A DNA stretch of 64,000 nt from a virus: the IMG/VR virus record IMGVR_UViG_3300023110_000006; one strand, given 5' to 3'. The position numbers and the translations under genes are program-made. Under the pieces are notes generated by a model. That model did not search any database, had not been told where the DNA came from, and worked only from the letters and a program-made list of their open reading frames with translations. Below, in pieces: positions 8,179-54,277 of this stretch (position 1 is the first letter of the stretch; every line of letters starts with the position of its first letter).

Positions 8179-8186
8179 TATTTATA
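8179..8186 (-). promoter_or_regulatory. T4-type late promoter TATAAATA
   Basis: Exact T4 late consensus upstream of the 8146 start; a gp55 homolog is in the window. Confidence 0.7.
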
Positions 8187-23100: not shown

Positions 23101-26100
23101 TACGCTTATATCTCTGACTGTTTCATTTAAAGTAATTGTTATGACACTATTATTATTGTTAAAGCCAACTATTCTCAGTGAGCTTTCTGTATGTTGTAAA
23201 ACATCCCATGTTTGGTTGTTAGTGGCTACCCAGATATAAGCATGTTTGTCTATATCAGTAATGTTAAAATCTAATATACCGTCTTTAGTGGTAACTGCAC
23301 GGTTGACATCTTGTCCTGTTACATATCCTACTGTTTTTACAAAAAAATCATCGTTGTATTTTGTAGGTAATTTGTTTGTGTCATATCCTGTTGGTTTTAA
23401 AAATACATCATAGTTTGGTATTCTGTAAACAAGATCAGTTTTTCCTACTGGAACATTATCTACTAGTTCAATTGTTTGCGGCTCAACTTTAAATTGATTT
23501 TCGTCTAGTTGCCATTCAATTTCATCATAATTATCTGTAGCACCATAACTACCTGTTTTGATTGCCCATTCTTCGTTAAAATCTACACTTTCTTTGTTTG
23601 CACTAGCCAAACTATCAAATAGTTTATCAATACTATTACGTGTACCTTTGTCTTGTATAAATCCTTGGTAGAATTTAAACTGGCTTACATCATCATTTAT
23701 TATGTTTTCTAAATACTGTCTTTTTTGGTAGCCAGTTAAATGTTGAGCAAGTTTTTGTTGCTCTACATCGAAATTATCACTTTCTAATTCATAAAAATCT
23801 GTAAACTGATTAACTCTATAATCAAAGTTTGTAAGTAATTTAGGAGTAGGTTTAGAATCTAATTTATTCCATTTATTAGCAACAAATTTTTCAGTACCAG
23901 GCACTGTATTTTTTGCAGTATAATAAAATTCTTTATAAAGCACTGTGTCGCCAATAGCATAATCTTTGTATTGTTCCCAATCTGATACTTCAGCTTTATC
24001 GTATACGAATCCTGGAATATTTAAACTTCCATCCCAGCCATCGCTTACATAACCTAAAACTCTAATTCTTTCTTGCCTATATCCTGTCACAGGATCATAA
24101 ATTACATCACCGAACACACTTGTATTATCTAAAAGTGCCACATGTTCTATTTGAACTAAGGGTAGTTCAACAAAGTACACTCCGTCTGCGGTGTTTACTA
24201 ATGTTATATTGAAGTCATTACCAGATCTTGCTAATCTTGTAAATTCTCCTTTAAGTTGTTCACCACCTGCATTTTGCATTTTATTTTCATAAAATTTGTT
24301 TTGAAGATCATCAACTACATTGTATTCTTTTTTAAAGGTAATTTGATTAGCACTAGGACTTAGTGTTAAAACAGTACCCGGTGCCCATCCTTGAGTGGTC
24401 CAATACATAAATTCTTTAGTGCTTAATTTCCAATCTTCTACAGTTTGAGATTCTTGGTTGTAATAATCAAAAGTGAATCCTTGTGTTTCTAAATAGTTTC
24501 CGTAACCTAAAAGAAAATCAACAACTTCTTGTGTAGTATTAAAAACATGACCATAAGGAAGAGTTTCTACATCTGTATCAAAGGCAGTTCTAAATTGAGC
24601 AGTTACTCCGCCTCTTGTTGGTATTGTAGGAATTTTGGTATATTTGCTTGGATCAAAAACAGTTGTGCTTGTATGTTCTTCAACTACTTTATAAAAAGTA
24701 TTTTCATATCTAACATAACTGTCAATAGTATATTTTTTATCAGTATCCCATTCTACAAAACTTTCACTTACTCCTCCAACATTTATGTTAGGGTCATCTA
24801 CTCTTTGTTTTGCAGGTGTATAGTAAAATAAAGGATCTAATTTGTTATATCCTCTAATAACATATCCATATGATTGTTTTTCTATTATTACGCCGCTATA
24901 AGATACAATACTAGTAGGCGAACTTCTGTTTAATGCAACTGTATAATTTTCAAAAGGTAAAAATACGTTACCTTTATTAAACGGAGTTCTGCTGTCTAAA
25001 ATAAATCTCAATTTATTCTTATCTGTAAATGCGCCTAGTTTAATTCCTAGCTGTAACTTCAATCCTTTTAATTCTGCTTCATATTGATTATTTGTAATTT
25101 CACTATTTTTCAAAACATAATTTACAACATAATCTACAAAACCGCTTGTATAAACTCTTGTTACATCGCCATACAAATTACTAAATTCTAAGTTTTCTAT
25201 TGCAACTGGTTTATTTGTATTTCTGTAAACCCATTGTCCTGCAAGGTTTCTTTTTACAGCTGAAATATCCCAACCTAGTCCCATTACTTTAGAAGGTTGT
25301 GATAATAACCATGCTTTTACAATACTAAAAGGATATTCTCCACTTCTTCTCCAAGCAGTTTCTGCAGGGCTTTGATCACCAAACTTAAATCCTTTTCTTG
25401 CATAAGACTGTACATAGTCTTTTGCATATCCGCTGGCTAGTGGACTTATTAGATTACCATCTACATCAACAGGAATATGTTTTGAAAGATCTTGTCTAAC
25501 ATATTTTTCATTGTATATTACAGGTTTACCTGGTTCTGCAATTTTTCCTGCTTCTAAATCTTCCCATAGTATTAAGTTATCAGAAGTATACGGAGCAGGA
25601 CCATACTTTTTCTCCCACCATTTAGGTTTAATACTAAACCCTAGCATTTCCCAAGGTGTAGTATGAGGTGTGTCAGTGTCGTATGCTTCTTTATATACAT
25701 TTCTCCAGAACCCGTCAATTCTTATTTTGCCAGGGCCTGTCATGTCTGAGTAGTTGTAAGTAAAGCTGTCTGTCTCTAAGAAACTATTATTTGTAGTATA
25801 ATCTACTCCGCCTAGACTTTCTGACCATTTTACAAAGTCTTTTAACAAAATATTGTCTATTTGTTTTTTTGTAAACTTTGTATCTCTGTCTTTTGACGGT
25901 ACAAAGTCATTTATGTCTAACTTTGTTGTATCATAATTTACTTTACAGTTATTATAGATTCTTCTTTCTAATTCTAATAATAAATTGTCTCTAAAATCAT
26001 TATATCCTACTGTTTTACTTCCGTCATGTCCAATAATTACTGTTGTAGGTGTTCTATATGAATTATCAATTTCTATTCTAGGCAAAAACTTAGGATATAA

Positions 26101-29037
26101 ACCTAGTTTTGTAGGAGTAGGTGGTACAAAACTTCCGTCTGTACTTTCATACTCAAAAATTTCTATTTTGTCACCTTCTATTTTAGGTGCAGTTATTACA
26201 GCAAATCCGTCATTGTTAAATGTGTAATCTATATCATAAGCTAATTGTTGTCCGTTTTTATAAATTAGTACAGATTTATTTGACATTTTTGATAAATCAA
26301 ATACTTCACTTAAACTAAAAAAGTTATTTTCTTCATCGTATACTGTAAACTCTAATCTTTTATAACCTTGGTAAGGAATCATGTCACTAAAATAAAAAGG
26401 ATCATTAGTAGTTTTTGTTTTGAATGCTTCCTTTAGTATTCTATCAACATGTTGTCTAACAGGTCCTTCATAACCTAATGTGTCAGCAATTTGTATAAAA
26501 GATCTTTTAAATGTTCTATATTCTTTTCTAGCAAAGTCTATAGCTTTTACTATGTTGCCGCCTTGTGTTGTAATATGGTAAAAAGGTAATACAGCAGGGC
26601 CTGCATGTTGTAAGAATTTTTTACCAAATTGGTTAACATCTCCTAAGTCACCTAAGTTACTGTTACCGGGAAACTCTCCTTTAAAATCTTTTAAGTCTTC
26701 TATCATGCCAAAAACATGATCGTTAATTTCGCCTAAAGTAAATGTTGATAAATCTTTATTTGCACTATTTCTTTCTAGTCCAAACGGAAATTCGTAATGT
26801 CCGTTTTGATTTTTAGATGTAGCACTATGAGTTTTAATAATAACTTTTGCTTCGCCTTCAATAGGTGTGTCGAAAGTTACAATAGCTTTTTCATTTTGTT
26901 TTGACAAACTCCAGTCATATCTATACTTGTTGTCTACTAATACAGAAATATCTAAGTCTGTTAAAAGACCGCTTTTATCATAAACATCTATCTCAAATGC
27001 TTGTGCAGTATCTACGATATTATATTGTGCAACAACTTTTTGCCTTAGGTCATTTTTACCTTTTGTCCAACCATTTTTATATTCAAACGTACTAATATCT
27101 GAATACTTACGCAAAAATCCTTCTTTTGTTTTTTTGCTTACTACATTATTATTTTCTTGGTATGTAAAAGAGTTTGTAACTAGATCAAAATTAAACGTAA
27201 TATCTCCTACGTTTTCTAATGCTCTGTAAACTAAAGGAAACCCTAGTTCGACGTCATCGGTGCCTGTACCAACAGCATAAGAAAATAATTTAGTTCCTTC
27301 AAATGTTGTTGTGGAATATACAGATGTATCACTAAAACTTACACCGTTTTCGTCAAATAAATCAAAATGCGGTTGTTGATTTAATTTTGTTTTTTCCTGT
27401 CCTTTAATCCACTTTGTTCCATTATACCACCAATGTTTTCCTCCGTTTTCAGTTCCTTTTTTAATTAGAACTACATCATTATTTTGTGGATTTGCATTAG
27501 TGTCTTCTATAAGAGCAATTTGTGGCACTGTTCTATTATGTGTGATAAACTTAACAAGATATATTTTATTATTAACACGGATATCAGTATCTGCAACAAA
27601 CAATACACGCATGCCGTCAGTTAAATCTACTCCGTCAATATTATATCCTACACCGCCTTCAATGTCACTAAACACATCTTTACTTTGTGTGTCAATAATA
27701 TCAATATCGTATGCTTTCGATTGTGTTCCAAAATTATTTAATTTTATACCAGCTTCGAATTCTATAATAGGTCTTTTAGCTCTTTGTGATTGGTCAATAT
27801 CAACTATATTACCATTTAATTCTGCGGCTTTTTCGATAACACTACGATGGAACCATTTGTTGTTACGTGACCAAGCGTTCCTGTCAGGAGATGCCCTGTT
27901 AATTACAATATAATCTTTATTAGCACTGTAACTAGCCGCATTACCATAAGGCAGTCTATCAAAACTTTGTCCATCAAACGGTATAGGAACATCGTCAGCA
28001 TACGCAAGATTAATTACTAAATCTTGCTCGTTTATTAATTTAATTGAACTACCAACACCTTCTACAATATATTCACCTAACGCAAATTTTGCAGGTGTTA
28101 CATCTCCTGCAAAATTAATTTTCATTCCGTTTTGTAAATTAAAACCTTTTGCAGTTTTATAAGTTTTTTTACCTAATATTTCTGCTTCTACATCTATTGC
28201 TGTTGCTTCGTCTGCATCAGATATTCTAATTATGCCGCCTGCATTGATATTGTTACTATCTACATAATATAATCTATTAGGTGCATCGTTAGGAACAGTA
28301 AAAGTAATTGTTCCTTCTTCTATATTATTATTAATTAAAGAATTATCTTCATAGATAAATTCATCATCTAAGTTTCTTTCTGTTCTAATACTGAATTTCA
28401 TTTCAGGAGTGCTTACCTGAAAATTATAAGTTTGTCCTCTGAATAATTCAATAGTTGCATTTTGTTCTAAATTACTATTAAAAACAAATGCAGGACTAAT
28501 ATCATTTTGAACACTGTTAACTAAAAAAGTAGTTTCTATTTCTGTGCTTTGTCCTACAACTTGTACAGATGCTGGACCGTTTGGTAGCCAAAAGTATTCT
28601 CTAAAGTTTACAAGTTTATCCCAATCTACATTAGGATTCCAAGAATAATATTCTGCTTGATTAAGTTTACTATGGTTAGTAACATCACTACCAAAATTTC
28701 TTAACTGGTTAATATAATCATTATAATCTTTGTAATAATTTACATTGTCTAATAAATCTTTATTTACAACTACAGGTTCTAATTGATATGTTTCTCTGTC
28801 AGAGTTAATATCTTCTACATAATTGTCTGCAACACGAAACGCTTTTGCATCACGTCTGCCGTAATAACCATTTAACTTTACTGCAACACCCGGTTGAGTA
28901 ATTTGATCTAAAGTTCCATCTAAAAACTTTTCATTTTTTGGAGTACGAAAATACTTAGGAAGAAAGTCTTTTGTTTTTCTTCCTCTTTTGCCGCCAGCTG
29001 GTAACGGGCTTTCATTTTGCTTGTTATCGTATGCCAT
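14185..29037 (-). CDS. giant (4950 aa) baseplate wedge/virion protein, gp7-like position
   Basis: Uninterrupted 14.85-kb ORF coupled to gp6 (TAATG overlap), with beta-propeller-like FG repeats and CBM-like aromatic modules. Confidence 0.7.
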   Translation of the reverse strand: MAYDNKQNESPLPAGGKRGRKTKDFLPKYFRTPKNEKFLDGTLDQITQPGVAVKLNGYYGRRDAKAFRVADNYVEDINSDRETYQLEPVVVNKDLLDNVNYYKDYNDYINQLRNFGSDVTNHSKLNQAEYYSWNPNVDWDKLVNFREYFWLPNGPASVQVVGQSTEIETTFLVNSVQNDISPAFVFNSNLEQNATIELFRGQTYNFQVSTPEMKFSIRTERNLDDEFIYEDNSLINNNIEEGTITFTVPNDAPNRLYYVDSNNINAGGIIRISDADEATAIDVEAEILGKKTYKTAKGFNLQNGMKINFAGDVTPAKFALGEYIVEGVGSSIKLINEQDLVINLAYADDVPIPFDGQSFDRLPYGNAASYSANKDYIVINRASPDRNAWSRNNKWFHRSVIEKAAELNGNIVDIDQSQRAKRPIIEFEAGIKLNNFGTQSKAYDIDIIDTQSKDVFSDIEGGVGYNIDGVDLTDGMRVLFVADTDIRVNNKIYLVKFITHNRTVPQIALIEDTNANPQNNDVVLIKKGTENGGKHWWYNGTKWIKGQEKTKLNQQPHFDLFDENGVSFSDTSVYSTTTFEGTKLFSYAVGTGTDDVELGFPLVYRALENVGDITFNFDLVTNSFTYQENNNVVSKKTKEGFLRKYSDISTFEYKNGWTKGKNDLRQKVVAQYNIVDTAQAFEIDVYDKSGLLTDLDISVLVDNKYRYDWSLSKQNEKAIVTFDTPIEGEAKVIIKTHSATSKNQNGHYEFPFGLERNSANKDLSTFTLGEINDHVFGMIEDLKDFKGEFPGNSNLGDLGDVNQFGKKFLQHAGPAVLPFYHITTQGGNIVKAIDFARKEYRTFKRSFIQIADTLGYEGPVRQHVDRILKEAFKTKTTNDPFYFSDMIPYQGYKRLEFTVYDEENNFFSLSEVFDLSKMSNKSVLIYKNGQQLAYDIDYTFNNDGFAVITAPKIEGDKIEIFEYESTDGSFVPPTPTKLGLYPKFLPRIEIDNSYRTPTTVIIGHDGSKTVGYNDFRDNLLLELERRIYNNCKVNYDTTKLDINDFVPSKDRDTKFTKKQIDNILLKDFVKWSESLGGVDYTTNNSFLETDSFTYNYSDMTGPGKIRIDGFWRNVYKEAYDTDTPHTTPWEMLGFSIKPKWWEKKYGPAPYTSDNLILWEDLEAGKIAEPGKPVIYNEKYVRQDLSKHIPVDVDGNLISPLASGYAKDYVQSYARKGFKFGDQSPAETAWRRSGEYPFSIVKAWLLSQPSKVMGLGWDISAVKRNLAGQWVYRNTNKPVAIENLEFSNLYGDVTRVYTSGFVDYVVNYVLKNSEITNNQYEAELKGLKLQLGIKLGAFTDKNKLRFILDSRTPFNKGNVFLPFENYTVALNRSSPTSIVSYSGVIIEKQSYGYVIRGYNKLDPLFYYTPAKQRVDDPNINVGGVSESFVEWDTDKKYTIDSYVRYENTFYKVVEEHTSTTVFDPSKYTKIPTIPTRGGVTAQFRTAFDTDVETLPYGHVFNTTQEVVDFLLGYGNYLETQGFTFDYYNQESQTVEDWKLSTKEFMYWTTQGWAPGTVLTLSPSANQITFKKEYNVVDDLQNKFYENKMQNAGGEQLKGEFTRLARSGNDFNITLVNTADGVYFVELPLVQIEHVALLDNTSVFGDVIYDPVTGYRQERIRVLGYVSDGWDGSLNIPGFVYDKAEVSDWEQYKDYAIGDTVLYKEFYYTAKNTVPGTEKFVANKWNKLDSKPTPKLLTNFDYRVNQFTDFYELESDNFDVEQQKLAQHLTGYQKRQYLENIINDDVSQFKFYQGFIQDKGTRNSIDKLFDSLASANKESVDFNEEWAIKTGSYGATDNYDEIEWQLDENQFKVEPQTIELVDNVPVGKTDLVYRIPNYDVFLKPTGYDTNKLPTKYNDDFFVKTVGYVTGQDVNRAVTTKDGILDFNITDIDKHAYIWVATNNQTWDVLQHTESSLRIVGFNNNNSVITITLNETVRDISVGDIFGITNMNTTTYTNMDGFYKATKVYNNIIEFTTTKDDYSNYDDANPQGTISFFTSQREADLQSANDNVTSSLKQNEIIWVDNDDNNKWTVLKNNKVYNEHQKILSSIELDSSFHGFGHSISVNESNTVMAVGIPYKGNGQVHIYKRASDSTNFVLDQILDAPISVIGNTSVAPQFGESVAVSPDGLYVVVGSPKASSVYSFYQGEFNPSRAYNKRQIVKYGPNLFEAIQAIDPSTSAIEFSSFDSFVNIVSQSDSSLVNLLQAGDYKLNNQQTSHVLVRAPYTAYNASAVGDTLVLNWNNFSYVHPEGYNVDVQPFNGEFPAITDGVISDQHTIQKKVDNVLVVQNYVNLPSVGETISSAVASGEIVHVANNIETLTIYVSNVNGTFEQSGTLFVGNLRIGDFSEDFQDNTNVLGGYWWIDTPTYTTSNDSSNVFTDPGHGLVYVDILTAASGRTTPNFYYNITPTEVTAQNNQTQLLLPVTLNEQASFMETLTYEGDPNNNFAVYPSPLWTVRGPATFTSTLSNGDKFYMDVDVINTDFTDTAIDRTLINKEHTVSDLWDGYIDFEFTQFQNVGGQQLPFELVIGDTVRDSVTGAEAEVAFYKRQFNDVRIYVKNVTGTWSVGDNFGTTANILRIRANARPIGEIKQVSIAGSLVGKIIVIEEDSNFANVAQSQLTNFEYFFYDVDTLQGIPRDPNIPSSNNNDWNLVNNLIVKDGPGTTVSGLTEEGMFTVYDISNTGQYQVYNSYTVPERQNYKRLGDEISFSKDGGIYRISVASNGNNTSNNAGSIHFIKHGTDTDANTFDFNLDINPLFRGEFDSQTFYKQNEIVEYLGKPYQALRNIASGSAFIQADWTALDIGISHVGYIPNTPLNAFVGEETFDPEFGIRDFAKSFDQTPDGSVMIVSSRIQGNDSTGERIVNVYRQLPGGQYILSQSIEAPYVDLSTGNLSGFGDAVSISTDGEMIAISETFNDNIKRDQGVVYVYTLQNQQFVLNQTLKSPNNEQTEHFGAYINFDGNQLAVTSLNGDIEIPNTFDNDTTTFDDGFTKFKKASNIDAGVIFMYERINKSLIYSEQFIFDDPNAIQFGKNLLVKQNHVYTAIPEMTDLATYQGIIVDFRKPIGSKAWNTHRSPIDQIDIPNIKNLFLYNTETNTLVQSLDFIDPVQGKIAGPAEQEISYKTYYDPATYSIGDDTVVVDEQNSWGADHVGQLWWDIGAVKYYNYYQNDIQYQTNYWGKPFPNGIVNVYEWVMTDLLPAEWNEIADTNDGLDRGISGISRYGDEVYSTRLVWDSVAGRSKPKYFYWVANKKVLPSVENRKLTAFAVRQLINDPAGQGYAFAALQSKDRMALFNVKPLLSGNNVALNLSYYTLDNQEQNRHLEYQILTDGIGSSRPNRDIELKWFDSLIGYDRKDRQVPDPRLSAKAKYGINNKPRQSMFVNRTEALKEVIERANGVLIKNIIVDEFDISRLRESDPQPNITSRRYDLAIDTFQDLPFVGVAKRITAELTPTIIDGRIVSVAITNPGRGYIDPSYTETLTSRLGPTVTVNGIGTDAIIETTIDEVGKITSVNIVDPGEGYDSATTLTVRNFTVLVVNDDTVSNKWSLYNYNGSKWNRTVAQRFDTNLFWEYKDWYEDGFNAFTEIKDLIDYSYQLDGLQNNVGDIVKISSVGTGGWLLLEKIDDQQNVDYTVNYAVVGKQNATIQFKSGLYDVENNLTGFDSNTFDTNFYDNQPVTETRIILEVLRDNLFVDNLNDEYNKLFVASLRYAFKEQPNIDWAFKTSFIQAVHNVGDLSQRITFKNDSIESYQDYINEVKPYKTKVRQYVSSYEKVEPTNTTISDFDLPPRYDYIKQKIIPTNTKINNNVITNLPDSIDQYPDKWWKDNVGYEIKEITIGKTGNLYVLPPKVTIEGGGGSGATAKAYLSNSKLSKIEILTPGSGYTSIPDVVLNGSVSDGGEFGSASAVLGNGKVRAMHVITKFDRVSGTPYILEVKKSETFTGTAVTSVFNLKWPMNLNGAKVKVYLNGVESLRSEYTFENYIDKTKTYTREKGRIIFTDAPKLGTVVKVDYELSPNLLTAQDRIEMYYAPTSGMLGKDITQLMEGVDFGGVEVKSFDFKGSGGFEVDGYGTVPYDIYDNTYEDIIVQLDGSTVEFSWDNPLENGVVYNVYKNNVRIDDPNYLHDSSRGANPNAIMRSITGDGQQTTLNLDDLVIPSTNGDVFILRKVTSDGSFKPDSASYDTQLSGGALSYNNAKGIDAAEIIVDGDNFITPMTTTGPEELVPGRIADTVDIQVYHRPDDGASEIISKFWTTDGVNGTFDLGQHPNSIDAVWVKLDNATIKKVDYTIDWVNDTLTFDTIPTAGKVLNIVTMGNSGEKILDIDKFVADGSTNTFVTNAIWTDNATHFANINGVEISSQLYKTDDGLIGIEFNVAPQIGQVVDYGIFYGSNKSYSSTTTHTFVGDGSTTVFDIQTDSIGGLPTQHNTIVSVNDVILQAGYNIEMLIEANEREYFIEDWQYYSNSVKTSEVEVYLNDELLRKAIDYRWNSTANSITLTQGIGVVGDKLEIFLMADGEYAFGYVGTDETSTQRFISTRDKVYFDTAPVLGSTVEVQMFSNHDIQNLTRTKYDFLTRKTLVGGTQAFADYVSLANGIIKLRKEASHAQDVWVFLNGDRLVANVDYRTTDDPYYIKILKNISANDTIEYIEWSQEKLTVKFGFREFKDILNRVHYKRIDDNTKYKLASDLNWFDTKIDLVDATGLNAPSKASKIPGVVFINGERIEYFVKQGNSLRQIRRGTLGTGVNTLLTTGTEVIEQGPSENIPYRDETITQIFTADGVASTYELDFDASAIATQYKQDSGSTKTVAEITADLFEVFVAGRRLRKSAISVYQTDTKDAQGNFVTRFVDQDSPEGDITANAEFTLNGNTIQLAETPTDGQKIVVIRRIGKTWTNLGESLADADNDIANFIRARTTELPN

Positions 29038-41226: not shown

Positions 41227-42057
41227 ATGAGAAAAACAAATTACTTAAACAATAAAGACATATTAGCAGAAATACATAAATCAAAAAATACGTTTAATAG
41301 TTATACAGATCCAGAATATGGATATTTTGATATTATTTTACCAGACGTGTCTAAAATAAACATAAGAACTATTGCAGAAGCAAAAAGAAATAAAGCAAAA
41401 AAATTAAGCACACAAGCGTTTGAACAAGCAAAAGCTCAGGGTAAAAAAGTAAAACAAGCAGATTGTGCTATAGATTACAAAAAAATTGACAAAAATGAAT
41501 TAATTTTTAGAATTATGACTTACGAACATATTCCTGAAGAGCCAGGACGTAAGAAAAATCCAAAAACTGTAGCAGATACAAAAGTAAAATTAAATTTTCC
41601 GCCTTTCCAGCACTACAAATTCAATGACGACAATGAATTAATAGTAGTTGGAAAAAGCCATTGGCAAGGAGGCATGGAAAATGGCCATTTTTCACTTACG
41701 CACGGCCAAGCAACAAATAAACTTGCTATGATGTGGATGAAATTGTGTGATCGTTATGCTACAAGAGGTAATGTAAGAGGATATACTTACAATGATGAAA
41801 TGCGAGGACAAGCAATACTGCAATTAGCACAGATTGGATTGCAGTTTGACGAATCTAAAAGTAACAACCCGTTTGCTTACTACACAGCGGCAGTCACAAA
41901 CTCATTTGTACGTGTTATCAACCTTGAAAAACGTAATCAGAACATTAGAGACGACATCCTTGAAATGAATGATATGAACCCAAGTTATACTAGACAGCAT
42001 CAAGGCGAATGGGAAGCAAGTGTTAGACGCGAAAAAGAAGCGGCAGAGGCAAAATAA
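41227..42057 (+). CDS. late transcription sigma factor gp55-like
   Basis: NYLNNKDIL, RGYTYNDEM, FDESKSNNPFAYYT, EKRNQNIRD. Confidence 0.85.
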   Translation: MRKTNYLNNKDILAEIHKSKNTFNSYTDPEYGYFDIILPDVSKINIRTIAEAKRNKAKKLSTQAFEQAKAQGKKVKQADCAIDYKKIDKNELIFRIMTYEHIPEEPGRKKNPKTVADTKVKLNFPPFQHYKFNDDNELIVVGKSHWQGGMENGHFSLTHGQATNKLAMMWMKLCDRYATRGNVRGYTYNDEMRGQAILQLAQIGLQFDESKSNNPFAYYTAAVTNSFVRVINLEKRNQNIRDDILEMNDMNPSYTRQHQGEWEASVRREKEAAEAK

Positions 42058-46876: not shown

Positions 46877-48831
46877 TGCAACTAGGCGAAGTAACAAACT
46901 ATAATTTACGTTCACAAACGATATTAAATGAAAGTTGGCAAGATCTAACAGAAAGTCAACGCTTGTATATAGGCCGTTGGGAAAAAGAATTATGGCCTTT
47001 GTTAGAAGAATACACAAAACAAATTAATGAAGCAACACTAACTGTTGATCAAATTGAAGCAATCTTCAAAGGTGCTGAATCGCAAGCAATGGCTGGCGGT
47101 GACAATAAGAATATCCTTGGCAAAGCAGGATCGGCCGCAGGGGCAGTAGCTAAACTTCCAATTGACATTGCAAAAAAAGTAGATGCAAAAATAAATGAAC
47201 TAGGCAAAGCCGCAAAAAATGCTGGTCCAGTAAAAAACATGGACAAAAAATTTAATGATCTCAAAGCAGACATTATGGCAAACAAGCCAGACAGTAAAGT
47301 TGTACAAGGTATTGTTAAAGTAAGTGACTGGGCAAAAGCAAATCCAGGCAAGGCAAGTATTGCAGTTGGTATTCTAACAGCTATTGCGGCATTCGCAGGT
47401 GGACCAATGGGCGGTGCGGCCGCTGGTTTAATACTACGTTCAACAAATGAATTATTAAAAGGTGAAGATTTATCTTCGGCAATAGGAAAGTCTGTTAAAA
47501 CTGCCGCTTACGGTGCTCTTGCTGGCTGGGCACTTCAAGGTATTGGTGACTGGTTAGAAGGATTGCGATTTGATGCAGTACCTTATGAAAAAGCACCTGG
47601 ACTAACAACTATGGAAGTTGGATTTCAAAAAACTTTAGAAGTTCCGGGATTTAAAGCAGTTGATACACTAGGTAGTATTATAGTTCCAGAAGACCGTGTT
47701 GGAGAATTTACTCAATTACTTGACGCAATGAAAGATGCAACAGCCGCAACAGGTAGCACAACTGATCCTGCGGCACTAGATGCATTTAGTCAACTTAAAA
47801 ACTTTGTAGATGGCTTTGATAAAGGAGAATTTATCAAAGATATGAATCTTGCAAACGAAGTAGCACAAGAAATTGCCGCACAAAATGATGCATTCTTACA
47901 AAACTTAACTGCCGCTAATAGTGCTATTGCCGCAGTTGCACAAGGTAGTATACAAGGTGCAGGAGAAAAAGGTGCATTTAAAATTGGCGGTGACGAAGTT
48001 AAGCCTGGAGATGTTGTAACAAGTGCGGCAGGTAATAAAAAGGTTGCAGGTGTAGATAGTAAAGCAACAACAACTGATCCTAGCAATTTAGCTGGCAGAG
48101 CTAAAATTATGAAAGCGGCAGACGAATCAGTTGATATGGAAACAGAATTTGAACGTTTCTTAGCAGAAGCTGGAGTAATGGACAAAATTAAATCTGGTGT
48201 CAAATCAGCCGCTGGCGCAGTAGCAGGCGGTGCAAAAGCTGTTGGTAAAGAATTAGGTAACAAAGTTACATACAACAAACTTATGAAACAGTGGAAAGGA
48301 GCAGGGGAACCTGCCGACACTGCAAGTATTATGAATATATTACAAGATGCTGGACTAACTAACGACCAAATTGCAAACATAGGACAGGAAGCCAAAGTAG
48401 ATCTTGGTAAGCCTAGTGAGCAACCTAAAGCAAGTGAACCGGCAACAGCAAGTGAACCAGCACCAAGTGGTGAACAACCATCAAACACAGCAACCCAACC
48501 AACAGGAGATACTAAAGTGGAACCATCAGAAATCCAAAAAGGTGATACAAGAGAAGTAAACGGAAAAACTTACAAATGGATGGGAGCTCTTTGGGTAGAC
48601 ACAGCAACAAACAAACCTATTGGAATTTTGCCTTCAATGAAAGCAGGACTTCCTAATCCAAAATTAGATCCTATTATACAAGCCGCTAAAAACGATCCAG
48701 AACTAGCAAAATTAATAAAAGCACAAGTGACTTCAAAAGGTGTAGAAGCAGGCTCAGCAGGCGCACAACAAGCCGCACAAGCTGGTGTACAAGGTACTGA
48801 AAAACTTGATGCAAAAGGTGTAAGTACTTAA
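46876..48831 (+). CDS. putative internal head/ejection protein
   Basis: LNE/LTE/INE/LAE motifs; hydrophobic Gly/Ala hairpin IAVGILTAIAAFAGGPMGGAAAGLIL. Confidence 0.5.
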   Translation: MQLGEVTNYNLRSQTILNESWQDLTESQRLYIGRWEKELWPLLEEYTKQINEATLTVDQIEAIFKGAESQAMAGGDNKNILGKAGSAAGAVAKLPIDIAKKVDAKINELGKAAKNAGPVKNMDKKFNDLKADIMANKPDSKVVQGIVKVSDWAKANPGKASIAVGILTAIAAFAGGPMGGAAAGLILRSTNELLKGEDLSSAIGKSVKTAAYGALAGWALQGIGDWLEGLRFDAVPYEKAPGLTTMEVGFQKTLEVPGFKAVDTLGSIIVPEDRVGEFTQLLDAMKDATAATGSTTDPAALDAFSQLKNFVDGFDKGEFIKDMNLANEVAQEIAAQNDAFLQNLTAANSAIAAVAQGSIQGAGEKGAFKIGGDEVKPGDVVTSAAGNKKVAGVDSKATTTDPSNLAGRAKIMKAADESVDMETEFERFLAEAGVMDKIKSGVKSAAGAVAGGAKAVGKELGNKVTYNKLMKQWKGAGEPADTASIMNILQDAGLTNDQIANIGQEAKVDLGKPSEQPKASEPATASEPAPSGEQPSNTATQPTGDTKVEPSEIQKGDTREVNGKTYKWMGALWVDTATNKPIGILPSMKAGLPNPKLDPIIQAAKNDPELAKLIKAQVTSKGVEAGSAGAQQAAQAGVQGTEKLDAKGVST

Positions 48832-49061
48832 AAGAAAGGCTGTCCGGTCTTTTTTGTTGTTTCTAAATTTTCTTTAATTAATTCAGCTATTATTTTTCTA
48901 TCTTCAGGTTCCATCATAAATGCTTCTTCTAGTGTGATGCTTCCTCGCATGTGCCACATCATACGCATAATATCAGATTTTAGCTGTTTGCTTTGCCCTT
49001 CAAGATTTTTTACTTCTTGTAGGATCTGTTCAACGGGCCACTGAACGATCCTTACGCGAAA
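48828..49061 (-). CDS. gp51-like hub assembly chaperone segment, probably reached by -1 frameshift from gp26
   Basis: Open 77-codon frame FRVRIVQWPVEQILQEVKNL...IMRMMWHMRGSITLEEAFMMEPEDRKIIAELIKENLETTKKTGQPFF. Absent from the ORF track; first ATG only at 48968. Confidence 0.7.
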   Translation of the reverse strand, partial: FRVRIVQWPVEQILQEVKNLEGQSKQLKSDIMRMMWHMRGSITLEEAFMMEPEDRKIIAELIKENLETTKKTGQPFF

Positions 49062-49064
49062 AAA
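49021..49064 (-). promoter_or_regulatory. putative programmed -1 ribosomal frameshift signal (T TTT TTC plus hairpin)
   Basis: Slippery heptamer at 49064-49058 in the correct phase, a 5-nt spacer, then the stem AGGATC-GTTCA / TGAAC-A-GATCCT. Confidence 0.7.
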
Positions 49065-49963
49065 GTTGATTGATCAAATGTAATTGGAATTTGAAAAGTT
49101 TCCGGAACTCCTTGTTCAATTTGTTCTTCTGTTGCTCTAACATCCATAGGAGGTACTTGAAATTTTTCTTTTTCAGTTTTAATATGTTCTTGTAAAGCAT
49201 TAAAAAATTTCTTTTCACTATTTTCTAAAAATTCTGTAATAAAGGCTCTTTCAGTTACTTCTGTTGTATCTTCAGCTGATAGTAAAGTAATTTTTTCTAC
49301 ACTATTTGCAACCATTTGCAGTGTTAGGTCTCTTATTTTATTAAAACTTTCTGTAAATTTTTGAAGTTTTATATCTTCTTGCATATCATCTGTGTTTACA
49401 AGTGCAAGTATTCTTTGTTCTTCAAAAGTTTGCATGTTAATTTTACTAAAATCCATATAGGTCAACGGTTTTGTTGTAACTTCCATATTTTCAAAAGTAA
49501 ATGTTGGATTGAACACAGCATTTGTGTATCTATCTAGTACTTGTCGGAGGTCGATAGAGTAATCAACAGTTTCTTTTAAGCCTGGAGGAGTAGCAGTAAT
49601 TTCCATTGTTTCACCATAGGTTGCAATTCTAATAGCAACAAGACTTGCATCAATATCTAGTGCTGGCATTTTCCAAGGATCTTTAATATTAGGAATACAA
49701 CTTTTTATCATGTCTACAGTTGCTTGTCCATTTAAAAGAGCATCAGGTGTTTTAAGAGCTAGTTCGTCTTTTGCTGTCATAGCATAAACTGGAAGCTCTC
49801 CGTTTTCTGGCATTTCTAAACTACCTTCTGGATAGTATTTTCCTTTGCTAGGCAGTGTTAGATAAATTTTAGGTTGTCTAAAATGTTTTCTAAGTGGATT
49901 GTCTCCACTTGGTTTTATTTCTTGCATAAGTGGGTTATGTCCACTAGGCTTTATTTCTGGCAT
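49052..49963 (-). CDS. baseplate hub assembly protein gp26-like
   Basis: YLTLPSKG, VYAMTAKDEL, DIDASLVAIRIATYGE, C-terminal ...TFFA; TATAAATA at 50007-50014 upstream. Confidence 0.75.
   Translation of the reverse strand: MPEIKPSGHNPLMQEIKPSGDNPLRKHFRQPKIYLTLPSKGKYYPEGSLEMPENGELPVYAMTAKDELALKTPDALLNGQATVDMIKSCIPNIKDPWKMPALDIDASLVAIRIATYGETMEITATPPGLKETVDYSIDLRQVLDRYTNAVFNPTFTFENMEVTTKPLTYMDFSKINMQTFEEQRILALVNTDDMQEDIKLQKFTESFNKIRDLTLQMVANSVEKITLLSAEDTTEVTERAFITEFLENSEKKFFNALQEHIKTEKEKFQVPPMDVRATEEQIEQGVPETFQIPITFDQSTFFA
49892..49963 (-). repeat. 36-bp tandem duplication of the gp26 N-terminus (MPEIKPSGHNPL / MQEIKPSGDNPL)
   Basis: Directly visible in protein and DNA. Confidence 0.9.
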
Positions 49964-50006: not shown

Positions 50007-50014
50007 TATTTATA
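50007..50014 (-). promoter_or_regulatory. T4-type late promoter TATAAATA, divergent from a + strand TAAATA at 49977-49982
   Basis: Exact consensus in the gp26/tape measure intergenic region. Confidence 0.7.
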
Positions 50015-50041
50015 TACGCACATAATGGGATTCTGTTGTTT

Positions 50042-52507
50042 ATGACTGTAAAAGGTACTATAGGTCAAGAAGATGTAATTTTAGAAGACGCGGCCACGGA
50101 AGCCACGCTCAAATCCATACTTGCCGCTATACAAGGCGGTGGCATGGGCGGTGGTGGAGGTGCAGGAGGCGGCCCTAAGCAAGCCCAGCAAAAGCTACTG
50201 GATCTGGCCAAGCAAACTGGTAAAACTAGTAAAACCGTAAAAGATTTTGAAGAAGATGTAGAAAATGCAGGTAATGCTCTTACTAGAGGATTCGGACATA
50301 TTGGTCAAGGACTATCAAACATTGCTATGGAGTTTATGTCAGGCACTGACAGACTCAGCGAATTTAGCCAACACATAACAGGAGTAATATCTAACATTCC
50401 TATTATAGGAGGAATGCTTGGAGGTGGTCTACAATTACTTACAAGTGTAGTCGATCAACAAATTGATGTATTTAGAGACATGTCAAAAGTAGGTGCAGGT
50501 TTTGGTAATGACCTAATGGCAACTAGACTAGCGGCCGCTAATGCTGGACTACAATTAGATACGTTCACAGGTATAATTACACAAAATTTAGATAACTTAA
50601 ATTTCTTTGCAGGCTCTGCTTCTGAAGCATCAAGACGTTTTGCTAACATAAGTGGACAAGTACAAAAAAATCAAATGCAATTCTCAAGATTAGGAATGAC
50701 TATGGAAGAAGTTGGCCAATATACTGCTGACTACATAGCATTGCAAGCTAGATCCGGTAGGGCACAAAGGATGACTGATGCTCAATTAGCCGCAGGAACT
50801 CAAGGATATATCAAGAATTTAGATCAATTAGCTAGAATGACCGGTAAACAGCGTGACGAGATTGCGGCTGAACTAAAATCACAAGCAGAAGATGATAGAA
50901 TTAATTTGTTGTTTGCTAGCCTTGATGCTGGGGCACAACAAAACATACAAAATGTTCTGTCAATGGTTGGTGATGCATCTCCAGAAATGAAAAATGCACT
51001 TACAGAAATGATAGCTACAGGCGGTGCTCCTCTAACAATGTATGGAGCAGAACTTGTAAATGCAAATTCAAATTTAGCGGCCGCGGCCCAAAATTTAAAA
51101 AATAATGCACCTGGTGCAATGGAAGAATTTTTGAAAGAAATGGACATTGCTGTAAGGAATTCACAAAATGCTGGACAAGCACATTTAGATACACTAGCCG
51201 TATCTAGAGCACTAGGTAACGAATATGGTGCGGCAACATCAGACATGGTTAGTATGAATGATAATATGCTTGATAGGTATTTGGAATCGCAACGTGAGTT
51301 AAATGCACAAACAGAAGATACAAAATTAGACATGACTAATTTTGAAAGTGCAATTACAAAAATTAAAAATACTATACAAACTGCATTGATAGACAGCGGT
51401 ATCTTCACACTTATTAATACAGAAATGAGTAAATTTACAGCTTGGTTAAGTGGTCCTGAGGCACTAACAGCAGTGCAAGGAGCAATACAGCCTTTTGTAG
51501 ATTTTTTCAAAGGTTTTATTGCAGACTTTAATGATCCTACAAAAGAACCTATGGCGGTTATCAAAGAATATCTAAACAAAGGATTAAGCAAACTAGGTGA
51601 ACTAATTAAACCATTAATTGCAAGTGCATTCAGTGGACTAGGCAGTATGATTATGGGAGCTATCTTTGGCGGTGGCAGTAGTGATGAAACATCAGTACCT
51701 GGTGGACCTCCAGGGTCTGGAGATGAATCTTCGGGCGCAGGATCGGGAGGCATATTTGTAGGACTAGACGGTGCCTTAGAAAAATTAGCTACAATGGTAG
51801 CAGTAGGTGGAACAGTTTATCTTGCTATCAAAGGTTTCCAAATGTTACTAGGTGGATTTAGCGCACCAAATGTTATACTTGGTGCAGGTGTACTAGCAGG
51901 ATTATTAATCGGTACAGGCGCGGCAATAGCCCTTGCAGGCCAAGGCATAAGTTCTGCAGGTGATGGCATAGAAAAAATGGCCACAGGTGTTGAACGTATG
52001 GCCGCAGTTAAAGATACAGCAAATCTAAAAGACGTTGCAGTAGCACTTGGTGATCTAGGTAAGGCAATGATAGCTCTTACTGCTGGTGGAGTGCTTGACA
52101 GCATAATGAGTTTCTTTGGTGCCGATTCACCTTTTGAAAAACTAGTAAAAGGTATTAATGAGTTTTCACAAATTGATGCAACAGCAGTATCAAACCTAAC
52201 TGCGTCTAGCAGTGGACTTGCAAATCTTAAAGCCTTTACTGAAGATTTAGATGCAGACGGTGTACGTAACTATGCAAGAGCTCTTAGAGAGTTAACAACA
52301 GCTATGAAACAACTGAACACAGTACTAGCTGACCAAAATACAGGTAGAAAAGAGAGCGGATATGCAGTAGCAGACATGCTCAAATCTGGAGCATTAGGCG
52401 GCGGTGGCGGCATAAGTAATAGTGGAATGAGTCAATTAATTGATTTAATGCGTGAAAATAATAGAATAACAGACCAAATACGAAGGCTAACGGGCGATAC
52501 TTTGTAG
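50042..52507 (+). CDS. tape measure-like protein
   Basis: Long Ala/Gly/Gln-rich helical protein with hydrophobic segments, next to gp26/gp51. ATG at 50042 preferred over TTG at 50036. Confidence 0.65.
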   Translation: MTVKGTIGQEDVILEDAATEATLKSILAAIQGGGMGGGGGAGGGPKQAQQKLLDLAKQTGKTSKTVKDFEEDVENAGNALTRGFGHIGQGLSNIAMEFMSGTDRLSEFSQHITGVISNIPIIGGMLGGGLQLLTSVVDQQIDVFRDMSKVGAGFGNDLMATRLAAANAGLQLDTFTGIITQNLDNLNFFAGSASEASRRFANISGQVQKNQMQFSRLGMTMEEVGQYTADYIALQARSGRAQRMTDAQLAAGTQGYIKNLDQLARMTGKQRDEIAAELKSQAEDDRINLLFASLDAGAQQNIQNVLSMVGDASPEMKNALTEMIATGGAPLTMYGAELVNANSNLAAAAQNLKNNAPGAMEEFLKEMDIAVRNSQNAGQAHLDTLAVSRALGNEYGAATSDMVSMNDNMLDRYLESQRELNAQTEDTKLDMTNFESAITKIKNTIQTALIDSGIFTLINTEMSKFTAWLSGPEALTAVQGAIQPFVDFFKGFIADFNDPTKEPMAVIKEYLNKGLSKLGELIKPLIASAFSGLGSMIMGAIFGGGSSDETSVPGGPPGSGDESSGAGSGGIFVGLDGALEKLATMVAVGGTVYLAIKGFQMLLGGFSAPNVILGAGVLAGLLIGTGAAIALAGQGISSAGDGIEKMATGVERMAAVKDTANLKDVAVALGDLGKAMIALTAGGVLDSIMSFFGADSPFEKLVKGINEFSQIDATAVSNLTASSSGLANLKAFTEDLDADGVRNYARALRELTTAMKQLNTVLADQNTGRKESGYAVADMLKSGALGGGGGISNSGMSQLIDLMRENNRITDQIRRLTGDTL

Positions 52508-52521
52508 TATAGGAATAGAAA

Positions 52522-54270
52522 ATGAGTTGGAAAAAATATTTTACACCAGTGCCAACAGCTGATAACTTAGGGGGAAGTTTCAGTCCTTTAGGTGGCGGTA
52601 AAAGAGGCGGTGGTGCTACAGCAGGACCAGCAAGGTCAAATTATAACAGTTATCTACCAGATGTATATGTAGGTAGTCCAAATCGTGTAGAGCGTTATGG
52701 ACAATACAATACAATGGATTTAGATTCAGAAGTAAATGCCGCACTAGACATTTTAGCAGAATTTTGCTCCCAAAAAAATACACAAAACAAAACTCCATTC
52801 CTATTAGATTTTAAAAAGAAAGCAACTAATTCAGAAACTACTATTCTACAACAGTATCTTTTACAATGGTGTAAAGTACAAAATTTTGAAACACGTATGT
52901 TTAGAATTATGCGTAATGCATTTAAATATGGCGATCAATTTTTTATTAGAGATCCAGAAACAAAAAAATTATTTCATGTAGATCCAGCAAACGTTGTTAG
53001 GATTATTGTAAATGAAAGTGAAGGAAAAACACCTGAACAATATGTAATTAAAAATTTTAATTTAAACTTTGCTGACATGGTAGCAACAACTCCTCATCAA
53101 ACTAACGGAAATGTTACTGGTGGAGGAGATGGTTACTTAACAGGCGGTGTCAGAGGAATGGTAGGACAAGCACCTACGCAAGCTGGTAGCAGATTTCAAC
53201 AAGGTGAAAATGAAATAACTATAGATGCAAAACATGTAGTTCATTTAAGTTTGTCAGAAGGCTTAGACAACAATTTTCCATTTGGTAATTCACTATTAGA
53301 AACAATTTTTAAAGTATACAAACAAAAAGAATTATTAGAAGATGCGATTATTATCTATCGTGTCCAACGTGCACCAGAGCGCAGAGTATTCTACGTTGAT
53401 GTGGGCAACATGCCTTCACACCTTGCTATGCAGTTTGTGGAGCGTGTTAAAACGGAAATACACCAAAGACGTATCCCATCGTCGACAGGTGGCGGTACAA
53501 ATGTCATAGACAGTTCATATAATCCACTGTCAATCAATGAAGACTACTTCTTCCCACAAACTGCGGAAGGTAGAGGATCTAAAGTTGAAACACTTCCAGG
53601 CGGTACTAACCTAGGAGAAATTGATGATCTTAGATACTTCACTAATAAACTTGTACGCGGGTTACGTATACCTAGCTCGTACTTACCAACTGGAGCGGAT
53701 GATTCAGCTTCACAATATAATGATGGGCGTGTTGGTACTGCATACATTCAAGAACTTAGGTTTAACACATACTGTGAAAGACTTCAAGGACTTCTTGTAG
53801 AAGATTTAAATAACGAATTTAAAAGATATCTTTTAGAAAAGGGTGTAAACATTGATACAGCAATGTTTGACATTAGATTCCAACCGCCACAAAACTTTGC
53901 GGCTTATAGACAAAGTGAAATTGATAATGCACGTATTCCAACATTTACTCAAATGAGTGCAATACCATACATATCTAATCGTTTTGCTATGAAACGTTTC
54001 TTAGGATTAAGTGAAGAAGAGCTTGCAGAGAATGAAAGACTATGGCGAGAGGAAAATGATGAAAACCTACAACCACTACCAACAGATGCGGCAGGTGAAA
54101 TGCGCGGAGCAGGTATAAGCAGTGCAGGTATTGATGCTGACATGTCTGGAATGGATGCAGAAGTTCCAGGAGGTGATGCACCAGTTGATGGAGGAACAGG
54201 AGAAGGCCCAGAAACCGCTACAGGAGATGCAGGCGCACCAGCAGAAGGAAATACTGACGTAACAGTATAA
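52522..54270 (+). CDS. portal protein gp20
   Basis: LLEDAIIIYRVQRAPERRVFYVDVGNMP, EDYFFP, GRGSKVETLPGGTNLGEIDDLRYF. Confidence 0.95.
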   Translation: MSWKKYFTPVPTADNLGGSFSPLGGGKRGGGATAGPARSNYNSYLPDVYVGSPNRVERYGQYNTMDLDSEVNAALDILAEFCSQKNTQNKTPFLLDFKKKATNSETTILQQYLLQWCKVQNFETRMFRIMRNAFKYGDQFFIRDPETKKLFHVDPANVVRIIVNESEGKTPEQYVIKNFNLNFADMVATTPHQTNGNVTGGGDGYLTGGVRGMVGQAPTQAGSRFQQGENEITIDAKHVVHLSLSEGLDNNFPFGNSLLETIFKVYKQKELLEDAIIIYRVQRAPERRVFYVDVGNMPSHLAMQFVERVKTEIHQRRIPSSTGGGTNVIDSSYNPLSINEDYFFPQTAEGRGSKVETLPGGTNLGEIDDLRYFTNKLVRGLRIPSSYLPTGADDSASQYNDGRVGTAYIQELRFNTYCERLQGLLVEDLNNEFKRYLLEKGVNIDTAMFDIRFQPPQNFAAYRQSEIDNARIPTFTQMSAIPYISNRFAMKRFLGLSEEELAENERLWREENDENLQPLPTDAAGEMRGAGISSAGIDADMSGMDAEVPGGDAPVDGGTGEGPETATGDAGAPAEGNTDVTV

Positions 54271-54277
54271 ATACATT

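Follow-up and report, generated by a model that had tools for sequence, protein, structure and literature searches.

The window analyzed here is a 64,000-nucleotide stretch of DNA from a giant, uncultured phage from a salt marsh. It encodes a gp26-like baseplate-hub assembly protein, and a putative -1 frameshift site lies at the 3' end of the gene (Table 1). By direct reading, this 3' end is ACT TTT TTC GCG TAA. The original prediction had placed a T-TTT-TTC heptamer in the correct phase there, and the reading confirmed it: as at a canonical -1 site, the heptamer lies in the 0-frame phase and both tRNAs are able to re-pair. Translation likewise gave the two products foreseen, one of 303 amino acids and a fusion of 378 amino acids, the latter made up of 302 upstream residues and 76 residues from the -1 frame (open for 78 codons if both Phe codons are counted). 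The predicted junction peptide of the fusion, ...QSTFFRVRIVQWPVEQ, was the same as that given before. The -1 frame is closed upstream by a TGA, as had been noted, at a distance of three sense codons rather than four, which bars entry into the extension from any point further upstream. The first ATG of the -1 frame, at 48968, is codon 33; it lies about 32 codons in, not 31, and no Shine-Dalgarno sequence was visible ahead of it when the window sequence was inspected, in keeping with the earlier remark that it lacks a clear ribosome-binding site.

Table 1. Positions of the gp26-like gene and of the predicted elements around its 3' end
Feature	Position	Strand	Description
T4 late-promoter word TATAAATA, candidate	50007..50014	-	44 nt upstream of the ATG; followed by a GGAGGA ribosome-binding site
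gp26-like gene, 0 frame (short form)	49052..49963	-	gp26-like baseplate-hub assembly protein, 303 aa; TAA stop at 49054-49052
TGA closing the -1 frame	49074..49076	-	Three sense codons ahead of the heptamer
Slippery heptamer T_TTT_TTC (Phe-Phe), predicted	49058..49064	-	X_XXY_YYZ phase; one codon ahead of the 0-frame stop; read directly
-1 frame extension, predicted	48828..49058	-	76 codons from CGC 49058-56 (C re-read) to 48831; TAA 48830-28
Candidate frameshift-stimulating stem-loop	49021..49052	-	11 bp plus one bulged A; starts 5 nt 3' of the heptamer

The late-promoter word TATAAATA occurs just three times in the window, where about 11 occurrences would be expected, and each copy precedes a gene. 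A gp55-like late sigma factor is encoded in the window at 41227-42057.

Conservation of the heptamer and of the -1 frame

According to the original prediction, the 3' ends of gp26 genes in relatives should share the heptamer and the -1 phase; both were kept in all relatives examined: 35 contigs from marine metagenomes, five isolates of jumbo phages, and six further phages of the T4 superfamily. The in-phase T_TTT_TTC was kept at all 47 other loci that were read across the end of the gene, in one of them as T_TTT_TTT. Among the IMG/VR loci with a match extending to the gene end and with sequence available downstream of it, the count was 35 of 35. A blastn search of the locus against the phage collection gave no match. 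With tblastn, the jumbo isolates Atu_ph07, PA5oct, 121Q, Phosso, and PHA46 were found at 28 to 33% identity; all five keep T_TTT_TTC and have a homologous -1 ORF of 72 to 79 codons. The site was also kept in P-SSM2, Melnitz-2, OLIVR5, PhiW-14, AsFcp_4, and LPCS28, together with a -1 ORF of 59 to 68 codons that is annotated as a small "gp51," as a "hub assembly catalyst," or as a hypothetical protein, or is unannotated. At locus L007, the -1 frame runs past the contig end.

The -1 ORF bears a signature of protein-coding selection without a conserved start codon of its own. Codon-position entropy was 0.68/0.51/1.42 in frame 0 upstream and 0.85/0.53/1.41 in frame -1 downstream; across the heptamer it was 0, wobble sites included, and the third-position wobble changes frame at the heptamer. 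The extension was conserved from the first post-slip residue in 23 aligned relatives. The synonymous sites of the heptamer were invariant in 17 of 17 aligned relatives, with the slip-site Phe codons being TTT (17:0) and then TTC (0:17) and an NNT codon ahead of them in every case. In the same gene, TTT and TTC are mixed at other invariant Phe columns (8:9, 10:7, 8:9, and 15:2), and the heptamer is therefore conserved far above chance. The conserved site and the -1 coding signature support the central claim of the original prediction, a programmed -1 frameshift that extends the gp26-like protein.

The same comparison bears on another reading, in which the downstream frame forms a small gene of its own, its translation depending on termination-reinitiation or on coupling at the gp26 stop, and TTTTTTC is kept for Phe-Phe only. 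GenBank records do annotate a separate ORF, and in several relatives an ATG overlaps the stop (GCATGA, TAATG). In many relatives an ATG or TTG is found 3 to 10 codons past the heptamer, so translation of a small protein may to some extent start independently there. However, the start codon is not conserved: the first ATG, GTG, or TTG of the -1 ORF is found at codon 3 to 32 across phages, and PA5oct has none. The original prediction had also raised the case of conservation beginning only at the 48968 ATG; in the window, 32 conserved codons stand ahead of this ATG, with no Shine-Dalgarno sequence. The -1 peptide is conserved from the heptamer onward even in phages whose 0 frame extends beyond it, by 11 codons in PHA46 and 3 in PA5oct. 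T4 gp26 likewise ends ...EFFELL, so Phe-Phe would be a protein-level motif, but T4 gp26 uses TTC TTT, while the TTT-TTC choice and the preceding NNT are invariant in the relatives though synonymous. Moreover, T4 gp51 has the same tail fused in frame to a PF12322 body (see below). We therefore consider a separate small gene very improbable.

A candidate stem-loop downstream of the heptamer

An 11-bp stem 5 nt past the heptamer was also part of the original prediction, and it is present in the window. One arm, AGGATCGTTCA (49052-49042), pairs with the other, TGAACAGATCCT (49032-21), and the spacer between heptamer and stem is GCGTA. The minimum free energy was -16.2 kcal/mol (z = -1.95), and an equally good fold was obtained for 6 of 200 shuffles. 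As a predicted stimulator, the stem-loop thus surpasses shuffled sequences only to a moderate degree (z about -2). Its conservation, proposed as a further check, was partial. In the nearest clades a stem begins at the same place, 5 to 6 nt past the heptamer, with differing 3' arms, and across 11 sequences 75.5% of cells were paired versus 69.9% after shuffling (0/500), with four pairs altered on both sides, a modest covariation. No convincing structure was found in L020-L043, the largest related clade, or in PHA46.

An identical fusion protein would be obtained if RNA polymerase slipped on the T run and added one U to some transcripts. A homopolymer run does exist, and Melnitz-2 has eight T. 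However, six T is short for known transcriptional slippage, and the C at the seventh base, the X_XXY_YYZ phase, and the stem 5 to 6 nt downstream suit a ribosomal site. Three metatranscriptome contigs spanning the site have the genomic T6, which counts weakly against polymerase slippage, as contigs conceal rare variants; they are of low depth, their libraries may contain DNA, and they are evidence neither of expression nor of a lack of editing. One metatranscriptome contig was short of 2 nt at 49078, which was rejected as a productive edit because it would hit the -1-frame TGA. Polymerase slippage appears extremely unlikely as the source of the long form. Finally, homopolymer runs are prone to error and T4 gp51 is an example of an unbroken long form, but the idea that one 378-amino-acid gene was split by a mistake in assembly or sequencing, or by a recent frameshift that inactivated it, has next to no probability and is, in our judgment, effectively refuted by the comparative data, since all relatives examined have the same arrangement, 11 cultured isolates from different sequencing groups among them, and the stretch was found word for word in 14 DNA runs.

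Relation of the two predicted forms to T4 gp26 and gp51

The short form matched PF12322 (T4_baseplate) at 36.6 bits (cut-off, 24.5) and phrog_150 with an E value of 1.6e-14. In T4, gp26 and gp51 are listed as hub assembly chaperones; gp51 is needed for hub assembly and is missing from the particle (Leiman et al. 2010, PMC3004832). Both T4 proteins matched PF12322 end to end as divergent paralogues, and gp51 has an extra tail at about residues 200 to 249. The pairing of gp26 with gp51 could not be upheld as it was first stated, since T4 genes 26 and 51 are not same-direction neighbours but divergent full-length PF12322 paralogues. T4 has two PF12322 genes, and the complete jumbo genomes of 121Q, PA5oct, and Atu_ph07 have one each. 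The record of the PA5oct homologue carries no MS note, unlike that of its neighbour.

Searched alone, the extension matched nothing in Pfam or PHROGs (E <= 0.01) or among PDB sequences (E <= 10); phrog_634 matched weakly, with 4 of 23 extension members at E >= 0.07. An HMM of the extension, run against the complete T4 genome, had no match at gene 51, and hhalign of the extension against the single gp51 sequence matched an unrelated stretch. The direct profile match between the window-type extension and the gp51 tail was weak (Prob 11-46%), and the case for homology of the tails therefore leans on an intermediate group. By hhalign, the window-type extension matched the cyanophage-type extension (Prob 81%, E 1e-5), which in turn matched the gp51 tail (Prob 96%, E 2e-9), and the alignment of the fused protein is colinear with gp51 through the slip site. 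Homology of the -1 extension to the C-terminal tail of T4 gp51 is thus supported via this chain of profiles. The description of the -1 frame as gp51-like was right for the tail, although only about 50 of the 249 gp51 residues are covered. That the gp51 label is wrong was also considered and was dropped on the PF12322 match of gp51 and the intermediate-profile chain. PF28602 is shown on gp51 homologues.

T4 gp26 (208 amino acids), of the same PF12322 family, would be the counterpart of the short form and ends at the Phe-Phe motif, and gp51 (249 amino acids) would be that of the long form, a body with a helical tail homologous to the extension. The body here is about 95 residues longer than that of T4, and the tail has a 14- to 16-residue insertion. 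T4 has two divergently transcribed paralogous genes without a slippery heptamer, whereas this phage and all checked non-Tevenvirinae relatives have one gene with a slip site. The small ORFs of cyanophages and relatives named "gp51 baseplate hub assembly catalyst" (P-SSM2 PSSM2_015, OLIVR5 gp242, phrog_634) have the same position, the -1 frame, an upstream heptamer, and a homologous sequence; unlike the fusion predicted here, they are annotated as free-standing from an internal ATG. These likenesses indicate that such ORFs are probably the 3' part of a frameshifted long form.

Predicted structure, neighbouring genes, and comparison with lambda gpG/gpGT

The AlphaFold model of the 303-amino-acid protein had a pLDDT of 84 and a pTM of 0.77, and the extension was predicted as three helices (pLDDT 77). 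A Foldseek search with the 303-amino-acid model gave no match at E <= 0.001, and VIA-align gave only generic helical-hairpin matches (Z <= 7.1). No tail-assembly-chaperone Pfam family matched, the Pfam search returning PF12322 only; the absence of a family or fold match leaves room for a distant relation to tail assembly chaperones.

The adjacent gene had been called tape-measure-like, which is unproven. No family was found for the neighbour P0096. P0097, a divergent neighbour, had no Pfam or PHROG match, and a language-model Atlas provided leads to the tape-measure families PF10145 and PF20155. When both were compared by BLAST with T4 gp27, gp28, gp29, gp48, and gp54 and with the neighbours in other phages, no match fell below E 0.001. 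In AsFcp_4, LPCS28, and P-SSM2, the gene is followed by an unassigned ORF of 530 to 620 amino acids with the same orientation; OLIVR5 and Melnitz-2 have one small ORF first and then a large unassigned one.

Xu, Hendrix and Duda are said to have described, in 2004, a -1 frameshift conserved in the tail assembly chaperone genes of long-tailed phages. The predicted products resemble lambda gpG/gpGT in sharing an N-terminal body, in arising by a -1 slip at a heptamer close to where the short ORF ends, in their role in tail assembly, and in being probably absent from the virion. They differ in that no relation to chaperone families, in sequence or in fold, was found for the protein here. Furthermore, the lambda-type gene sits between the tube and tape-measure genes, whereas the gene here is divergent from the tape-measure-like candidate, and the extension is short (76 amino acids) against lambda gpGT. 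The comparison would thus be a likeness of logic, not of family, and the naming of gp26/gp51 as "G/GT equivalents" remains an analogy, as no chaperone Pfam family or solved chaperone fold was matched.

Proposed mechanism and implications

From the comparisons above, it is very probable that this hub-assembly gene of the gp26/gp51 family (PF12322) yields forms of 303 and 378 amino acids by a -1 frameshift. Most ribosomes would halt at the TAA (49054-52), giving the short form. A fraction would slip back one base with two Phe-tRNAs on T_TTT_TTC, both re-pairing on UUU, and would go on in the -1 frame, adding the 76-residue three-helix tail of the long form. The slip rate is probably increased by the close 0-frame stop and by the stem-loop that starts 5 nt downstream. 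A single late-transcribed gene would then supply, in a fixed ratio, two proteins that share a body, and in T4 an equivalent pair would come from two paralogues, gp26, which lacks the tail, and gp51, which has it. By analogy with lambda G/GT, we infer that the short and long forms may act as non-virion chaperones for the hub or the tape-measure complex.

No published report of a frameshift in a gp26-like gene was found in the open-access literature searched, and none of the inspected records has a joined CDS for the gene and its extension. Many deposited genomes probably mis-annotate the locus, showing there either a free-standing small "gp51" gene or a gap without annotation. It is conceivable, though we would stop short of calling it probable, that the gp26 -1 frameshift is ancestral to the whole T4 superfamily and nearly universal in it (in the jumbo Rak2/121Q/PA5oct/Atu_ph07 types, the cyanophages, and those Straboviridae that are not T-evens), and that it is the counterpart of G/GT, with T4 gp51 as a hard-wired long form after gene duplication. 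If this is true, T4-like phages would no longer be an apparent exception to the conserved tail-chaperone frameshift, gp26 and gp51 would gain a defined mechanism, and the long-puzzling "catalytic" gp51 would be explained. With a fixed-ratio slip in one gene in most T4-superfamily phages, gp26 and gp51 would be one chaperone with or without a tail, and the theme of the tail-chaperone frameshift would reach a large phage lineage and a different protein family.

Slip site and two predicted products of the gp26-like gene

The gp26-like gene ends in a slippery heptamer in the X_XXY_YYZ phase, as the original prediction had it, and translation reproduced both proposed products, a short form of 303 aa and a long form of 378 aa made by a -1 slip. 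Two counts were corrected. The TGA closing the -1 frame is present upstream of the slip site, at a distance of three codons rather than four; the first ATG does lie late in that frame, at 48968, but it is codon 33, about 32 codons in rather than 31, and no Shine-Dalgarno sequence was seen upstream of it. One metatranscriptome contig (run X16, about 3x) lacked 2 nt at window position 49078, 14 nt upstream of the heptamer; this loss is probably an error or a rare variant, since the altered frame would reach the -1-frame TGA.

Features at and around the gp26-like gene (window positions)
Feature	Position	Strand	Basis or remark
gp26-like ORF, 303 aa	ATG 49963 to TAA 49054-49052	minus	read from sequence
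TGA closing the -1 frame	49076-49074	minus	translation
Slippery heptamer T_TTT_TTC	49064-49058	minus	gene end ACT TTT TTC GCG TAA
-1 frame, open for 78 codons including two Phe	to TAA 48830-48828	minus	translation
11-bp stem, one bulge, five nt after heptamer	49052-49021	minus	RNA folding
P0096, 651 aa, Ala/Gly-rich, hydrophobic segment	46876-48831	plus	convergent; stop overlaps extension stop by 4 nt
P0097, 823 aa, TTG start	50036-52507	plus	divergent from gp26-like gene
TATAAATA, T4 late-promoter word	50007-50014	minus	44 nt ahead of gp26-like ATG
TATAAATA, other copies	8179-8186 (-), 54266-54273 (+)		each, like the first, just ahead of a gene

With 3 copies against about 11 expected, the word TATAAATA is underrepresented in the window, and the gene-proximal position of all three copies is as expected for putative T4-type late promoters. 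The gene for a gp55-like late sigma factor lies near the gp26-like gene. Other T4-type neighbors include portal gp20, a gp46/gp47-like nuclease, the major head protein, and gp5-like and gp25-like baseplate proteins; a single 4950-aa ORF (14185-29037, minus strand) lies among baseplate and fibre genes. The short form matched PF12322 (T4_baseplate; 36.6 bits, cut-off 24.5) and phrog_150 (baseplate hub). Its structural model was confident (pLDDT 84, pTM 0.77), and comparison with solved structures gave no informative Foldseek match (E of at least 0.28) and only a generic helical hairpin with VIA-align (Z ≤ 7.1). The extension, i.e., the -1-frame tail, was predicted as three helices (pLDDT 77). 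The DNA runs containing the stretch came from salt-marsh metagenomes, and the nearest isolates according to tblastn (28-33% identity) were jumbo myophages: Phosso, Atu_ph07, PA5oct, the 121Q/PBECO4 group, and the Munch/PHA46 group.

Conservation of the slip site and of the -1 frame

In all five jumbo isolates examined, T_TTT_TTC occurs close to the 3' end with its phase unchanged, and each has a homologous -1 ORF of 72 to 79 codons. The 0 frame extends past the heptamer by 11 codons in PHA46 and by 3 in PA5oct; the conserved -1 peptide, which opens with FFR.. and goes on to a PEEI-type motif, nonetheless starts at the heptamer in both. Among 39 IMG/VR relatives (36-57% identical), 35 had a match reaching the gene end plus downstream sequence, and in all 35 the heptamer stands one codon ahead of the stop. 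The 78-codon extension is also kept in these 35 (alignment A1 of the extensions), with that of locus L007 running off its contig end.

In 18 sequences of this kind, codon-position entropy was 0.68/0.51/1.42 upstream, read in frame 0, and 0.85/0.53/1.41 downstream, read in frame -1; over the heptamer it was zero. In 17 aligned genes, the first slip-site Phe codon was always TTT (17:0) and the second always TTC (0:17), following a codon ending in T in every case, versus mixed usage at the four other invariant Phe columns (8:9, 10:7, 8:9, and 15:2). The first ATG, GTG, or TTG of the -1 ORF varies from codon 3 to codon 32 among relatives. In PA5oct, the conserved 75-codon -1 ORF after the baseplate-hub gene (L002, 3331-3555) is unannotated and contains none of the three. 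Taken together, these sequence comparisons would leave translation by slippage as the sole explanation consistent with all genomes.

Transcriptional slippage on the T run is unlikely: the run comprises six T, and it was likewise T6 in three RNA-library contigs, although this is weak evidence. What contradicts a free-standing small gene translated by coupling is that its start codon is unconserved or missing, that the heptamer is synonymously invariant, and that gp51 carries the fusion in frame. A sequencing error behind the split frames is excluded by how many independent genomes show them.

The downstream RNA stem

The stem claimed five nt past the heptamer was recovered, with an energy of -16.2 kcal/mol (z = -1.95; 6 of 200 shuffles folded equally well). 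In the clades nearest to the window, a stem starts 5 to 6 nt past the heptamer, and its 3' partner varies among sub-clades. For the helix on 11 sequences, paired cells reached 75.5% versus 69.9% in shuffles (0/500), and the covariation score was 0.206 versus 0.125 (3/500), with four pairs changing on both sides. No convincing structure was found in the clade of loci L020 to L043 or in PHA46 (z ≥ 0). The stem is therefore likely a frameshift stimulator, not a universal one. The 0-frame stop one codon past the slip site is more constant.

Relationship to gp26 and gp51 of T4

In T4, gene 25 comes after gene 26 (208 aa), and gene 51 (249 aa) lies on the opposite strand, divergent from gene 26; gene 26 has no heptamer of this type, its C-terminal Phe-Phe being coded TTC TTT. 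Both proteins match PF12322 end to end (E 9e-64 for gp26 and 4e-52 for gp51), and gp51 has an additional tail, starting near residue 200, that both phrog_634 and phrog_150 (positions up to 280) cover. PF28602, a newer Pfam family precomputed beside PF12322 on nearly all full-length gp51 homologues (248-266 aa), presumably models this tail. PF12322 genes number two in T4 and one each in 121Q, PA5oct, and Atu_ph07.

Six other T4-superfamily phages, here the middle group (P-SSM2, Melnitz-2, OLIVR5, PhiW-14, AsFcp_4, and LPCS28), carry the heptamer, which reads T_TTT_TTT in Melnitz-2, together with a -1 ORF of 59 to 68 codons; Aeromonas phage avDM4 differs, having the layout of T4. The -1 ORF is a hypothetical protein in the PhiW-14 record and unannotated in those of AsFcp_4 and LPCS28. 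The records of P-SSM2 (L056, 1578-1763), Melnitz-2 (L057), and OLIVR5 (L058) start a small "gp51," "hub assembly," or "baseplate hub assembly catalyst" gene at an internal ATG; this annotation is probably wrong, each small ORF being the 3' part of a frameshifted long form of gp26.

Profile comparison linked the window-type extension to the middle group over the full length (Prob 81%, E 1e-5), and the middle group to the tail of 90 gp51 homologues (Prob 96%, E 2e-9). The fused-protein alignment of the jumbo group was colinear with gp51 through the slip site (Prob 46%). These links indicate a predicted gp51 architecture for the long form and a gp26 architecture for the short form. The proposed gp51-like nature of the -1 frame stands, for the gp51 tail, through the middle group, but the direct match of the window-type extension to that tail is weak taken alone.

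Flanking genes and comparison with lambda G/GT

A published list counts T4 gp26 and gp51 among the hub assembly chaperones and gives gp51 as missing from the particle (PMC3004832). In certain GenBank entries, homologues of gp26 already go by the name "tape measure protein assembly chaperone" or "baseplate hub assembly chaperone." As to the tape-measure-like gene said to adjoin, P0097 is a candidate: 23 of 30 named language-model matches (ESM-Atlas) were to tape-measure families (PF10145 and PF20155, at 0.93-0.94), but neither Pfam nor PHROGs gave a tape-measure match. P0097 contains patches rich in Gly and, toward its C terminus, hydrophobic segments. Its gene and the gp26-like gene are likewise adjacent in 121Q, PHA46, PA5oct, and Phosso (phrog_14121, "virion structural protein"). 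No family was found for P0096 in Pfam, PHROGs, or the Atlas.

The proposed equivalence to G/GT, the lambda tail assembly chaperone pair made by a -1 frameshift, would hold by analogy as logic: a common body to which a tail may be added, a ratio that is fixed, and a role in assembly. The equivalence does not extend to family membership: the gp26-like protein matched no tail-assembly-chaperone family in Pfam, and its model gave no informative fold match. No report of a gp26 frameshift was found in the open-access literature searched, and none of the deposited records examined had a joined CDS of both frames. The mechanism belongs to a known kind, and what is new is its presence in this gene family and lineage.
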